Shown piece after piece: positions 861 through 30,783 of a stretch of 31,131 nt of DNA. The stretch is taken from positions 1 to 31,131 of IMG/VR virus record IMGVR_UViG_3300045988_022899; one strand, 5' to 3'. The number at the start of each line of letters is the position of its first letter. Position 1 is the stretch's first letter. The notes beneath the pieces were generated by a model, which was given only the letters and a program-made list of their open reading frames with translations, made no database searches and had not been told where the DNA came from. Origin of the DNA: a virus (lineage: Duplodnaviria; Heunggongvirae; Uroviricota; Caudoviricetes). A program made the translations under genes and the position numbers.

Positions 861-875
861 TTACCTTTCAGGTGA
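861..875. promoter_or_regulatory. Operator-like palindrome TTACCTTTCAGGTGA (one mismatch to the recurrent motif)
   Basis: Seen in sequence; lies in the divergent intergenic region between the tail fiber start and the LexA-boxed gene. Confidence 0.4.
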
Positions 876-912: not shown

Positions 913-932
913 TACTGTATAAATATACAGTT
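913..932. promoter_or_regulatory. LexA (SOS) box TACTGTATAAATATACAGTT
   Basis: CTGT-N8-ACAG with an AT-rich spacer, close to the E. coli LexA consensus TACTGTATATATATACAGTA; 20 bp upstream of the ATG at 952. Confidence 0.8.
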
Positions 933-951
933 ATTGCATGGAGAAGATAAG

Positions 952-1209
952 ATGCAGCAGTATCACTATCCACTGGAAGACGGATTTACCGAAAGGATTC
1001 ACACGCCGGGAGGCGTCAGGTCACTGGTGGAGGGATCGCACTTGATGAAATTACTCCGGGATCTCGATAAGGATGGATTTAATGTCGATGGCCCACTTGC
1101 CGAACTGACTGCACTGATTAACTACGTCACCAGCTCACAGATGTCTATGCGGGATCTGCAAACACATCTCGACTATTGTGCCGAACAATTACGAAAACAA
1201 ACCCGGTAA
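952..1209 (+). CDS. Small antirepressor-like protein (paralog of the Ant C-terminal domain)
   Basis: ATG at 952 with GGAGA RBS (the track ORF starts at an upstream TTG). The 85-aa product aligns with the C-terminus of the 2355-3041 product (shared L..LL..L...G.DV.G...ELT....Y......M.RD.QTH..Y pattern). Confidence 0.7.
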   Translation: MQQYHYPLEDGFTERIHTPGGVRSLVEGSHLMKLLRDLDKDGFNVDGPLAELTALINYVTSSQMSMRDLQTHLDYCAEQLRKQTR

Positions 1210-2088: not shown

Positions 2089-2354
2089 ATTTACATCGCA
2101 CTCCTCTTGTGCCATAGTAATCGGGCACTGGCAAAATCCAGTGCCGGGATTGGCGTCCCGGATTACTACAGAGGCACATATGCCGCATAAGCGGTTTTTT
2201 TATGTGTAAAGCGCACCTATTCTATGGTGGGCTGTGTGGGGGCACCGAAAGGTGCGCCGGGTCCTTTGTAGCCGGTTACGCCAACCCTGCACAGTTCACC
2301 ACCAACCGATTGGCGTCGGTAGTGGTGATTAACCTAACTACAAAGGTGATCACT

Positions 2355-3041
2355 ATGACTGCTAACGTAACCCCATCTGTTTTTCATTTTGAATCAGAAG
2401 CAACCATTCGAGCCATTGTTATTGATGGAAATCCTTGGTTTGTTGCCAAAGACGTTATTAAAGCTCTTCAACTGACAAACCCCACTATGTCAATAAAATC
2501 TCTTGATGATGATGAAAGGGCTAAATTTAACTTAGGCCGTCAAGGCGAAACCAATATTATCAACGAGTCAGGCCTCTACACACTGATCCTCCGCTGCCGC
2601 GATGCGGTGACACCAGGCACTATCCCCTACCGCTTTCGTAAATGGGTTACAGGTGAGGTTCTTCCTCAGATCCGCCGCACCGGAAGTTACATTAAAAACT
2701 CGCTCCCGCAGGAAGAACGCATAAAGATGGTTGCCGACCAGGTAGCCAACGCCACGGCGTCAGCAGTGATGCAGGCGATGAAGATAGAGAACAAAACCTA
2801 CAGTGCCCCACTGAAGCCCGGCTACCGCAGTCTGATTCATTCTCCGTCTGGTGTTCTCGGCCTGACGGAGAACTCACTGCTGATGAATCTGCTGAACCAG
2901 TTACAGGAAGACGGGCACGACGTATCGGGCGCGGCGGCGGAGTTGACCACCATGTTCTGCTACATCGTCGGTGTGAGCAAATGCCTGCGTGATATCCAGA
3001 CGCACGCGGAGTACATCAACGACAAGGCAGGGTTCTTCTGA
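2355..3041 (+). CDS. ant: Phage antirepressor (Bro-N domain N-terminus plus C-terminal antirepressor domain)
   Basis: ATG at 2355 with AAGGTGA RBS; the track ORF has a 51-codon upstream extension. N-terminus FHFESEATIRAIVIDGNPWFVAKDVIKAL...ESGLYTLILRCR...VLPQIRRTG matches the Bro-N/antirepressor pattern from memory. Confidence 0.8.
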   Translation: MTANVTPSVFHFESEATIRAIVIDGNPWFVAKDVIKALQLTNPTMSIKSLDDDERAKFNLGRQGETNIINESGLYTLILRCRDAVTPGTIPYRFRKWVTGEVLPQIRRTGSYIKNSLPQEERIKMVADQVANATASAVMQAMKIENKTYSAPLKPGYRSLIHSPSGVLGLTENSLLMNLLNQLQEDGHDVSGAAAELTTMFCYIVGVSKCLRDIQTHAEYINDKAGFF

Positions 3042-3107: not shown

Positions 3108-3122
3108 TTACCTTAAAGGTAA
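3108..3122. promoter_or_regulatory. Operator palindrome TTACCTTAAAGGTAA
   Basis: Identical to the 1981-1995 site; 43 bp upstream of the ATG at 3165. Confidence 0.55.
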
Positions 3123-3164: not shown

Positions 3165-3491
3165 ATGACAAAACTTGGATTCGTGATGAGAGGTCCGGTA
3201 AGAAGCGGAACTCATGCAAAGCGTAGCAAGAGTCGTATTTTTACTGGTAAGGTTGTAGCACGTAAATCAGCTATTGGCTCGTTCAATAGTGAAAATGCGG
3301 CATTGCGCCATATTTTTATCAGCACAAAGCCAAGAGCATCCGCTGATGTGCATACAATGTCTATTCCTATCACAAAGAATATAAAGCGGATAAAAAAGCT
3401 CTCATCTGCAGAATCAAAAGAGATATCTTTCCGCCAGCTTAACTCATTAGAAACGCATATGAAGGAAGAGGAATTCGATGTTTTTGAGTGA
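3165..3491 (+). CDS. Small basic protein, first gene of a coupled pair (candidate antitoxin/partner)
   Basis: ATG at 3165 with GGAGA RBS; Lys/Arg-rich N-terminus and acidic C-terminal tail; its stop overlaps the downstream start by 14 nt. Confidence 0.55.
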   Translation: MTKLGFVMRGPVRSGTHAKRSKSRIFTGKVVARKSAIGSFNSENAALRHIFISTKPRASADVHTMSIPITKNIKRIKKLSSAESKEISFRQLNSLETHMKEEEFDVFE

Positions 3492-20826: not shown

Positions 20827-20841
20827 TTACCTTTCAGGTAA
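20827..20841. promoter_or_regulatory. Operator palindrome TTACCTTTCAGGTAA with upstream TTGACA (20805-20810)
   Basis: Perfect 6-3-6 palindrome over the -10/+1 region of a putative rightward promoter for the plus-strand insert. Confidence 0.5.
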
Positions 20842-21163: not shown

Positions 21164-21240
21164 GTGGCATTAGCTCAGTTGGACAGAGCAACCGCCTTCT
21201 AAGCGGTTTGTCGCAGGTTCGAATCCTGCATGCCACGCCA
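21164..21240 (+). tRNA. tRNA-Arg (anticodon UCU)
   Basis: Hand-folded cloverleaf: 7-bp acceptor stem GTGGCAT/ATGCCAC, anticodon stem ACCGC/GCGGT with loop CTTCTAA, T-arm GCAGG-TTCGAAT-CCTGC, 3' GCCA; resembles E. coli argU. Confidence 0.85.
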
Positions 21241-23957: not shown

Positions 23958-24002
23958 CATAACCACCGTGGTAATAGTTACCGTTGTGGTAATAGTACCA
24001 TG

Positions 24003-27429: not shown

Positions 27430-27444
27430 TTACCTCTAAGGTAA
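27430..27444. promoter_or_regulatory. Operator palindrome TTACCTCTAAGGTAA overlapping the RBS of the 27426 gene
   Basis: Seen in sequence. Confidence 0.45.
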
Positions 27445-27491: not shown

Positions 27492-27506
27492 TTACCTATT
27501 GGGTAA
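27492..27506. promoter_or_regulatory. Operator palindrome TTACCTATTGGGTAA
   Basis: Seen in sequence, in the intergenic region downstream of the P-like gene. Confidence 0.5.
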
Positions 27507-29357: not shown

Positions 29358-29507
29358 GGTAAGCCCTGTTATTAGTATTGGGATTACGGTCATTTTGTGC
29401 TGACACAAAAAAAAGATCAACCATATTTGGTTTTTTATTACCTTTGAGGTACGAATAGATATGAAAAGACCGCCGGGTGGCGGTCTACAGAGGGTTGTAG
29501 CTGGATA

Positions 29508-29738
29508 TCATGAGTAGAAGAAGTATGCCAGTTCTGCTTTTGAGCGCAGCCATTGTCTTGTTTTACAGGCTTTAAAAAGCCCATTCATCAATACTTTACC
29601 TGGCATTTTGCGCTTACCTGTTAAGTGAGTCTGGATATAGTGACTCGTCGTTCCGGCTTCCTGTGCGAAGGCTTCACGCTCATCCGGAGTAAGTGCAAGC
29701 CAGTGCTTTTTGAAATCGAAATGTCCGTTATCGCTCAT
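29508..29738 (-). CDS. Cro-like small HTH regulator (YdaS-like), first gene of the leftward early operon
   Basis: 76 aa; HTH-like segment EAFAQEAGTTSHYIQTHLTG; divergent from the repressor across an operator-rich intergenic region. Confidence 0.6.
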   Translation of the reverse strand: MSDNGHFDFKKHWLALTPDEREAFAQEAGTTSHYIQTHLTGKRKMPGKVLMNGLFKACKTRQWLRSKAELAYFFYS

Positions 29739-29774
29739 AGCTATTGCCTGATATTTATTTCAGATAATAAATAT

Positions 29775-29837
29775 TCACCCATAAGGTAACAAAAATCAAG
29801 GATAGTTACCCATGAGGTGCATTTACCTGTTGGGTAA
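29775..29837. promoter_or_regulatory. Tripartite operator region with divergent promoters between the cro-like and repressor genes
   Basis: Three sites seen in sequence: TCACCCATAAGGTAA (29775-29789), TTACCCATGAGGTGC (29806-29820), TTACCTGTTGGGTAA (29823-29837). Confidence 0.6.
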
Positions 29838-29892
29838 TATTGCTTTAAATTGAATCATCTACTGATTCATATATGAGGCGATTTTCCAGAAA

Positions 29893-30477
29893 ATGAAAAG
29901 TATCCAGGACGTCCGCAGGCAAAATCTCAACGACTTGATCGACCGTGAATTCAATGGTGTTCAGACGCGGATGGCTGAAAAACTTGGAACTCAGGCAAAT
30001 CTGGTAAACCGCTGGGCTCTTGGTAAGAAGGTTATCGGCGATCAGGTTGCGCGAAAAATTGAAGCTGCCGCCAATAAACCCCGTAACTGGCTTGATATCG
30101 ATCGCTCGCTTTCTCAGGAAGGTTTTCAGCCTGTCGGCCCAAGCGACATTGGTCAGCTGGCAGCTCACAACCTGGAACGCTGGATGAGTGAAAGCCGCGA
30201 CCTTTCAACTCAGGGAAAACTTCACCGCGCATCCGGCGTCGCCCAGGTGACAATAAGCCGCCTGTTAAACAATGAGGTCAGCGTTTCCATTTCCACCCTG
30301 GAGAATGTTGCATCTGCATTCGGGCGTCACGGATATGAACTACTGATTCATCCGCATGACCCTGCAACTATCAACTATGACCGCTCGCGCTACGCATTGT
30401 TACCTGAAACAGAGAAGGCAAAGATCGAAAGTTACATTGAATTTGTCATCAACCAGAACGAAAAAAACAAACAATAA
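29893..30477 (+). CDS. Prophage repressor, tandem HTH (XRE-type) domains, no S24 peptidase domain
   Basis: 194 aa; two HTH-like segments (QTRMAEKLGTQANLVNRW and SGVAQVTISRLLNNEVSVSISTL); no Ala-Gly/Ser-Lys autocleavage module; no recognisable SD before the ATG. Confidence 0.65.
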   Translation: MKSIQDVRRQNLNDLIDREFNGVQTRMAEKLGTQANLVNRWALGKKVIGDQVARKIEAAANKPRNWLDIDRSLSQEGFQPVGPSDIGQLAAHNLERWMSESRDLSTQGKLHRASGVAQVTISRLLNNEVSVSISTLENVASAFGRHGYELLIHPHDPATINYDRSRYALLPETEKAKIESYIEFVINQNEKNKQ

Positions 30478-30498
30478 AATCATATTTTTCAGTAAGTA

Positions 30499-30522
30499 AG
30501 CCGCCTTATGGCGGCTTTTTTA
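30499..30522 (+). terminator. Intrinsic terminator AGCCGCC-TTAT-GGCGGCT plus T-run after the repressor gene
   Basis: Seen in sequence. Confidence 0.7.
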
Positions 30523-30534
30523 TTGCCTGTTCGA

Positions 30535-30611
30535 TTACCTAACGGGTAATTTTTTTAACTCATATCTATTGACATCAAACCAGATACGCATAATTATTAC
30601 CTCAACGGTAA
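30535..30611 (+). promoter_or_regulatory. PL-like rightward promoter flanked by two operators
   Basis: TTACCTAACGGGTAA (30535-30549), -35 TTGACA (30569-30574), AT-rich -10 near 30591-30597, TTACCTCAACGGTAA (30597-30611) over the predicted start site. Confidence 0.55.
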
Positions 30612-30630
30612 CATACCGAGGTAACAAGTT

Positions 30631-30783
30631 ATGCAGTGGAAAATCATCAACGGTTGGTACTGCGTTACTGCATGCGGATTCATGAGCTGGAAGTTCCGCA
30701 CCTTACAGGAAGGCATTAAGTGGGCTTTCGTCAGCAAAGAAGCTCGCGATGTAGCCAACGATAACGAGATATGGGAGGGCTGA
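30631..30783 (+). CDS. Small protein (50 aa), first gene of the rightward operon
   Basis: ATG at 30631 with GAGGT RBS; absent from the ORF track (below its length cutoff). Confidence 0.4.
   Translation: MQWKIINGWYCVTACGFMSWKFRTLQEGIKWAFVSKEARDVANDNEIWEG

Follow-up and report, generated by a model that had tools for sequence, protein, structure and literature searches.

The gene examined here, rep, very probably encodes the main lysogeny repressor of a temperate podophage of the phiV10/epsilon15 type, a repressor that is inactivated by an antirepressor and does not cleave itself. The window, by which we mean the whole 31,131-nucleotide stretch of viral DNA that was analysed, holds most of such a phage, which belongs to the genus Uetakevirus. 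On the evidence of sequence, Rep belongs to the SPC32H Rep/Ant family and not to the S24 autocleaving family. The Rep-Ant switch of Salmonella phage SPC32H is among the closest known systems (Kim & Ryu 2013, J Virol 87:11775; Kim et al. 2016, PNAS 113:E2480; PDB codes 5D50 and 5D4Z).

Identity and architecture of Rep

The gene, its terminator and the three parts of its product are:

29893..30477, plus strand: rep, an open reading frame of 194 amino acids with an ATG start
30498..30525, plus strand: predicted intrinsic terminator after rep, annotated in phiV10
Rep residues ~1-70: N-terminal helix-turn-helix (HTH) DNA-binding domain
Rep residues ~89-152: middle HTH_3-like domain
Rep residues ~153-190: short C-terminal domain

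Rep shows 100% identity with phiV10 gp40 and ORF21 of vB_EcoP_ZX5 (Perry et al. 2009; Li et al. 2022, PMC9782041), and the region from 29400 to 30700 shares 98% DNA identity with phiV10, the O157 typing phages, vB_EcoP_ZX5 and others. The immunity module is present in 540 of 5,426 complete E. coli genomes (~10%). In the phiV10 record gp40 carries the label 'putative transcriptional repressor; two helix-turn-helix motifs (PF01381)'. The assigned start codon is supported by conservation among six related phages, which opens exactly at the ATG; ATGAAAAG is invariant there and the adjoining upstream sequence diverges.

Residues 1-190 align with residues 2-197 of the 199-residue SPC32H Rep chain (PDB code 5D50_A, phmmer E 4e-42), and a BLASTP comparison of the two repressors gives 42% identity with an E value of 2e-53. 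Residues 89-190 also match the solved C-terminal fragment, 5D4Z (E 4e-20). Domain by domain, identity to SPC32H Rep is highest at the N-terminus (54%), falls to 34% in the middle part and is 47% over the C-terminal part. The epsilon15 repressor, gp38 (GenBank AY150271.2; Kropinski et al. 2007), is likewise 42% identical to Rep. In SPC32H Rep the N-terminal domain binds DNA, the middle domain dimerises and the p53-like C-terminal domain serves both tetramerisation and Ant binding (PMC9986798); tetramers of this type bind DNA and are broken by Ant (PMC9638917). The full-length homology, the three-part layout, an Ant encoded in the same genome and a LexA box together place Rep with the SPC32H type at the level of sequence.

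The original prediction described a protein with two HTH domains. Two HTH-like regions are indeed recovered with Pfam profiles, but in the homologue of known structure the second of them is assigned to dimerisation. Scanned alone, residues ~104-148 score 27.0 bits against HTH_3 (cut-off 23), and residues ~21-67 reach 15.9 bits for HTH_3 and 20.4 bits for YdaS, both below threshold; residues 146-194 have no Pfam match. A recent internal duplication as the origin of the two regions is ruled out, since BLASTP finds no similarity between residues 1-77 and 83-194.

Is there a peptidase in Rep? That it carries no S24 or other autocleavage module had been predicted, and profile scans agree: Pfam, PHROGs and NCBIfam return HTH-type families and no S24 peptidase. 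Nor is there room for such a domain, because residues 1-190 align to the whole of the solved repressor chain and only four residues lie past the aligned part. The Ser-Lys dyad domain and linker site that characterise autocleavable repressors such as LexA and lambda CI are both absent from Rep, and its 194 residues include neither an Ala-Gly nor a Cys-Gly cleavage dipeptide, nor any cysteine. One might imagine a LexA/lambda-CI-type protein whose peptidase is cryptic or has diverged strongly; we found no point in its support, and the C-terminal half of Rep, where a peptidase fold would have been expected, is homologous to the non-peptidase fragment 5D4Z. The chance of such a protein is vanishingly small and, as far as sequence can decide, the idea is already refuted. 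The description of Rep as non-cleavable draws further support from the full-length homology to SPC32H Rep taken together with an antirepressor gene in the window that has its own LexA box.

A different function for the protein has also to be weighed, that of a HigA/VapI-type antitoxin or general XRE regulator with no role as prophage repressor. Phage BP9 labels the identical protein 'plasmid maintenance system antidote protein VapI', and there is a weak NCBIfam match to HigA (TIGR02607). The score of 18.7 bits is, however, far under the cut-off of 47.7, no toxin gene adjoins rep, whose neighbours are the cro-like gene and small early phage genes, and the epsilon15 homologue is annotated 'repressor' with reference to 5D50. 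The identical ZX5 protein abolished free phage and shut down lytic transcription on overexpression, with holin and endolysin transcripts falling by more than 99.9%, and ZX5 lysogens are mitomycin C inducible (PMC9782041). An antitoxin is therefore very improbable, and we treat Rep as the prophage repressor in what follows.

Operators and the Rep regulon

Operators were scored against the motif TTACC-N5-GGTAA, and mismatches are counted relative to it. Exact copies number ten in the window, compared with 0.04 expected from shuffled sequence. At least 15 operators are predicted in total; 14 of them have one mismatch or none and the other, O2, has two. They all lie between genes or at the start of one, close to promoters, in a window where only about 8% of the DNA is intergenic. 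The sites, with the early promoter that two of them bracket, are:

861..875: Rep operator upstream of the ant promoter, 1 mismatch
1981-1995 and 2074-2088: two operators, both perfect, in the divergent region upstream of the small RNA and Bro-N/Ant module
3108..3122: perfect operator upstream of the gene at 3165-3491
20827..20841: perfect operator between genes, before the leftward structural genes; an equivalent is annotated in epsilon15
23960-23974 (1 mismatch) and 23978-23992 (perfect): operator pair where the small terminase gene begins
27430-27444 and 27492-27506: two perfect operators at a distance of 62 bp, in the gap that separates the replication genes from the following leftward gene
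29438..29452: operator with 1 mismatch, immediately beyond the terminator of the cro-like gene
29775..29789: operator O1, TCACCCATAAGGTAA, 1 mismatch, overlying the spacer and -35 of the leftward promoter of the cro-like gene; conserved in six phages
29806..29820: operator O2, TTACCCATGAGGTGC, 2 mismatches, 31 bp from O1 and 17 bp from O3
29823..29837: operator O3, TTACCTGTTGGGTAA, perfect palindrome arms, overlapping the -35 of the candidate rep promoter
30535-30549 and 30597-30611, plus strand: operator pair, both perfect, 62 bp apart, bracketing the rightward early operon promoter
30569-30597, plus strand: predicted rightward early operon promoter, TTGACA-17-AATTAT

Three operators had been proposed between rep and the divergent cro-like gene. 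They are present, starting at 29775, 29806 and 29823, but the triplet turns out to be only one part of the larger regulon. The three-site divergent layout is kept in SPC32H, epsilon15, Klebsiella phage BUCT711 and Enterobacter phages Tyrion and BUCT554, and the spacings of 30-31 bp and 17 bp, together with an invariant AAAAATCAA block, recur in six phage lineages. The epsilon15 record annotates seven scattered ATTACC-N5-GGTAAT sites as 'repressor', among them equivalents of the rightward early pair and, at 12-27, of the pair at the small terminase gene. It leaves the triplet between the repressor gene and gp39 unannotated, though the sites are there at 33341, 33358 and 33388.

If both HTH domains were to read DNA, Rep would be a true tandem-HTH repressor, with one monomer placed on two half-sites, and the pairing of operators might reflect this. 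The operators are often paired and the middle domain is the better match to HTH_3 (27 bits as against 15.9 for the N-terminal region), yet each operator is a simple two-fold palindrome with one type of half-site, TTACC. In SPC32H it is the N-terminal domain that binds DNA and the middle domain that dimerises (PMC9986798; PMC9638917). Moreover, the NLVNRW segment of the N-terminus is retained between repressors that are 42% identical overall and have a common half-site, whereas the middle domain is only 34% identical. NLVNRW would fit as the recognition helix for that half-site. Tandem reading is thus highly unlikely, and we favour DNA binding by the N-terminal domain.

Site positions and the SPC32H homologue together suggest how repression may operate. 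The N-terminal HTH domain would read palindromes of 15-17 bp, ATTACC-N5-GGTAAT, the middle HTH_3-like domain would dimerise Rep and the short C-terminal strand-helix domain would join two dimers into a tetramer. Rep would then occupy O1 in the cro-like promoter and O3, which covers the -35 of the candidate promoter of rep itself; binding to the pair that brackets the rightward early promoter and to some nine more promoter-proximal sites would silence the lytic genes.

The spacing of the two wider pairs is conserved. Downstream of rep it is 62 bp throughout the six lineages, with 63 bp in BUCT711, and after the replication genes it is 62 bp in phiV10, Tyrion, epsilon15 and SPC32H, the lineages for which that region was compared. 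This distance corresponds to about six helical turns and would fit a single tetramer bridging two palindromes with the promoter held in a small loop. Looping at these pairs would be in line with the looping role that has been proposed for such tetramerisation domains.

Promoters and translation start of rep

Promoters were predicted by a PWM scan of six phages. Features of the divergent region, in addition to the operators, are:

29508..29738, minus strand: cro-like gene, 76 amino acids (phiV10 gp41), matching PHROG 35 'transcriptional repressor' (E 5.6e-13)
29764..29792, minus strand: predicted leftward early promoter of the cro-like gene, TTGTTA-17-TATTAT, 11.1 bits, the best match in the region
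29822..29851, plus strand: predicted candidate rep promoter, TTTACC-18-TAAATT, 8.7 bits, ending 41 nt before the ATG
29875..29878, plus strand: GAGG, the sole element resembling a Shine-Dalgarno (SD) sequence, 14 nt before the rep ATG and too distant for a normal SD

The product of the cro-like gene has no significant Pfam match and no sequence relative in the PDB; its position suggests a cro-like role.

The 12 nucleotides that precede the rep ATG are ATTTTCCAGAAA. As had been noted from the sequence, no SD lies within this distance: pairing with the anti-SD over positions -15 to -4 is estimated at +0.3 kcal/mol, a weaker value than for any other of the 25 genes compared in the window. The cro-like gene comes next at -2.5 kcal/mol, and 22 genes have values at or below -6.0 kcal/mol. 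The distant GAGG does not occur in Tyrion, epsilon15, SPC32H or BUCT711, and these four phages likewise have no SD close to the start codon.

Could the message be leaderless, as it is for lambda cI transcribed from PRM, with a transcript starting at or near the A of the ATG? This had been one of two suggestions. The lack of an SD within 12 nt holds in all six lineages, and epsilon15 and SPC32H have a -10-like TACAAT 4 nt before the ATG, with TTAGGT as a -35 (7.3 bits). This TACAAT is, however, missing from the phiV10, Tyrion and BUCT554 group, and at 4 nt it is too close to the ATG, 6-7 nt being usual. In the window itself the sole promoter-like match near the ATG overlaps the start codon, and by the predictions of the PWM scan no conserved -10 ends ~6-7 nt before the AUG in the six phages. 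The candidate rep promoter, by comparison, is the top plus-strand candidate and has the same position in five of six related phages, or in all six if -10 variants are allowed. It is the only plus-strand candidate conserved in position across the six (TTTACC-17/18-TAAATT or TTTAAT), ends 39-42 nt before the ATG and lies in a conserved block. A rep leader of ~35 nt is predicted from that position, so a leaderless mRNA is not favoured and we consider it unlikely.

The other suggestion, weak initiation, fits better. The predicted leader and start region are rich in A and have less structure than their shuffled counterparts (z = +1.62), and initiation on rep may be weak and independent of an SD, from an unstructured leader of ~35 nt. 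Rfam searches at the rep start and at the terminator gave sub-threshold, terminator-driven matches only.

Translational coupling to a 7-codon upstream open reading frame (ATG at 29873, TGA at 29894-29896, forming an ATGA overlap with the rep ATG) was considered and rejected as a general mechanism. BUCT554 has this short open reading frame too, but it is missing from Tyrion and BUCT711 and is shifted to a different frame in epsilon15 and SPC32H. Nor is it preceded by an SD.

The position of O3 suggests that Rep may regulate its own synthesis. The candidate rep promoter would be blocked by this best operator, an awkward arrangement for stable maintenance expression.

Antirepressors and comparison with known switches

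Two antirepressor genes and the elements that precede them are found near the start of the window:

913..931: LexA box, TACTGTATAAATATACAGT, directly upstream of ant
952..1209, plus strand: ant, an 85-residue antirepressor matching PDB code 5D50_E 'Anti-repressor protein' (E 1.4e-46), ~87% identical to SPC32H Ant
2125-2201, plus strand: isrK-type small RNA, Rfam score of 76.8 bits, above the gathering score
2220-2306, plus strand: C4 antisense RNA, Rfam score of 79.5 bits, above the gathering score
2355..3041, plus strand: second antirepressor, a Bro-N domain (Pfam E 5e-20) with an Ant-like C-terminal domain and PHROG matches

The core of the LexA box, CTGTATAAATATACAG at 915-930, has no mismatches and aligns with the boxes of SPC32H and epsilon15. 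Indeed the whole region upstream of ant aligns with these two phages, through the Rep operator, TTGCA, the LexA box and the SD. In PHROGs the ant product falls in phrog_450, 'unknown function'. The pairing of this Ant with Rep is assumed from homology, with the caveat that while Ant is ~87% identical to its SPC32H counterpart the Ant-binding C-terminal domain of Rep is only 47% identical.

Both RNAs lie upstream of the Bro-N/Ant gene, and residues 147-224 of its product are 41% identical to Ant (E 2e-16). A homologue, ORF4 of ZX5, was included in an overexpression test (PMC9782041). Two antirepressor routes thus coexist in the window, one under LexA and one under the C4 and isrK RNAs.

With no peptidase module, Rep could not be triggered by RecA to cut itself. 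Induction would proceed instead through the first antirepressor: on DNA damage LexA would leave the box ahead of ant, and the 85-residue Ant would bind the C-terminal domain of Rep, dismantle the tetramer and release the DNA. Tetramerisation, Ant binding and the absence of SOS cleavage are carried over, by analogy, from a homologue only 42% identical to Rep. SPC32H Rep reportedly stays uncleaved during SOS. A review places SPC32H with the prophages in which self-cleavage of LexA leads to antirepressor synthesis, and not to repressor cleavage, and describes the antirepressor route as being under LexA, citing Kim & Ryu 2013 (PMC7380047).

SPC32H is the closest system in organisation, with the same three-part Rep, LexA box at ant, operator consensus, three-site divergent region and 62-bp pairs. 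The window phage differs in that its host is E. coli and in the addition of the Bro-N/Ant-like fusion behind isrK and C4 RNAs; the annotated SPC32H record lists no such fusion protein. The same logic, in which LexA represses a small antirepressor that binds the repressor, is found in Gifsy-1 and Gifsy-3, Fels-2 and the CI-Tum system of coliphage 186 (PMC7380047; Lemire et al. 2011; Shearwin et al. 1998). Searches of Pfam, PHROG and the PDB with Rep and Ant gave no sequence match to the Gifsy, Fels-2 or 186 proteins. SPC32H Ant is said to be structurally distinct from antirepressors of the Gifsy/Fels-2/186 type.

Lambda likewise has a divergent repressor/cro arrangement, three operators over two promoters, a second operator cluster at the other early promoter and a repressor gene without an SD. 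Rep differs from lambda CI in having no S24 domain and, presumably, no RecA-stimulated cleavage, in an active form that by analogy would be a tetramer built through a p53-like strand-helix domain, in operators that extend to late and accessory promoters and in an mRNA that is probably not leaderless. The immI region of P1 and P7 (c4-icd-ant) and the isrK-orf45-anrP module of Gifsy-1 also place a C4 antisense or isrK RNA directly upstream of an antirepressor gene. P1 C1, too, has many dispersed operators. The window differs from the P1/P7 and Gifsy-1 modules in that the C-terminal domain of its antirepressor is a paralogue of the SPC32H-type Ant and in that Rep operators flank the module.

How much of this is new? 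The protein, its family, structure and antirepressor and, in epsilon15, the dispersed operators are already published or deposited, and the discovery value is slight given that Rep is identical to a phage repressor that has been annotated and handled experimentally. What may be new, in a minor way, is that two operator pairs keep their 62-bp distance among relatives, which suggests looping, that rep lacks an SD in all of them and that two antirepressor routes occur together. The accessible portions of the phiV10 and ZX5 papers (Perry et al. 2009; PMC9782041) give no account of the operators, of the absent SD or of the small Ant homologue under LexA control. The practical value lies in annotation, as records currently name Rep a 'helix-turn-helix domain-containing protein' or 'VapI antidote'.

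These features may tentatively be drawn together, in a combination that we think possible but rather less than probable. Rep would loop DNA between the 62-bp pairs, a spacing conserved at two separate promoters even though the repressors are only 42% identical. Made from a gene without an SD, it would be scarce and poised near the dimer-tetramer transition, where a modest pulse of Ant would suffice to flip the switch. Finally, because the half-site is common to all these repressors and Ant is ~87% conserved, cross-immunity and cross-induction among Uetakeviruses could occur. If true, such cross-talk would span the Uetakeviruses of E. coli, Salmonella, Klebsiella and Enterobacter despite the divergence of their repressors.

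Paired operators and the start of rep

Perfect copies of the Rep operator (TTACC-N5-GGTAA) occur as pairs 62 bp apart in the window and in two related phage sequences, L007 and L008, each numbered in its own coordinates.

Window: 27430/27492 and 30535/30597
L007: 32555/32617 and 35907/35969
L008: 33604/33666 and 35972/36034

This spacing is found at two different promoters and is kept across lineages with divergent Reps; in Klebsiella phage BUCT711 it is 63 bp instead. The recurrence of such conserved pairs suggests that a Rep tetramer loops the DNA.

A seven-codon upstream ORF (29873-29896, +; product MRRFSRK) ends in a TGA that overlaps the rep start codon as ATGA. It lacks an SD of its own, is common to the window and BUCT554, and has no counterpart of this kind in Tyrion, BUCT711, epsilon15 or SPC32H.

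Distribution and other genes

Among complete E. coli genomes, 540 of 5,426 carry the immunity module (window 29500-30630) at 95% identity or higher; RefSeq names Rep there merely 'helix-turn-helix domain-containing protein'. One phage record labels it a VapI antidote. Two further genes are noted in the window.

21164-21240, +: tRNA-Arg (anticodon TCT), inside the phage
1232-1960, -: 242-residue protein, phrog_6762, with a C-terminal match to endonuclease VII/HNH/Lar-like families

SPC32H has an annotated tRNA-Arg in the same relative place. The phrog_6762 gene is divergent from the antirepressor module, and the two share the operator-bearing intergenic region.

Two Ant-type modules

The ant promoter region carries a Rep operator (861-875) and a LexA box (913-931), an arrangement kept in SPC32H and epsilon15. 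With both types of site present, ant may therefore be controlled jointly by Rep and LexA. Three features lie further downstream.

2125-2201, +: isrK sRNA (Rfam, 76.8 bits, above the gathering score)
2220-2306, +: C4 antisense RNA (Rfam, 79.5 bits, above the gathering score)
2355-3041, +: Bro-N 'anti-repressor' gene, immediately 3' of both RNAs

Rep operators at 1981, 2074 and 3108 flank this group. With the RNAs directly ahead of the Bro-N gene, the group looks like a second antirepressor module of the P1 immI or the Gifsy-1 isrK/anrP kind. A C-terminal stretch of about 80 residues in the Bro-N protein aligns with Ant (952-1209, +) at 41% identity (E 2e-16), and both proteins match phrog_450. 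This stretch and the small Ant under LexA control are paralogues, so the phage has two Ant-type modules, each controlled differently.
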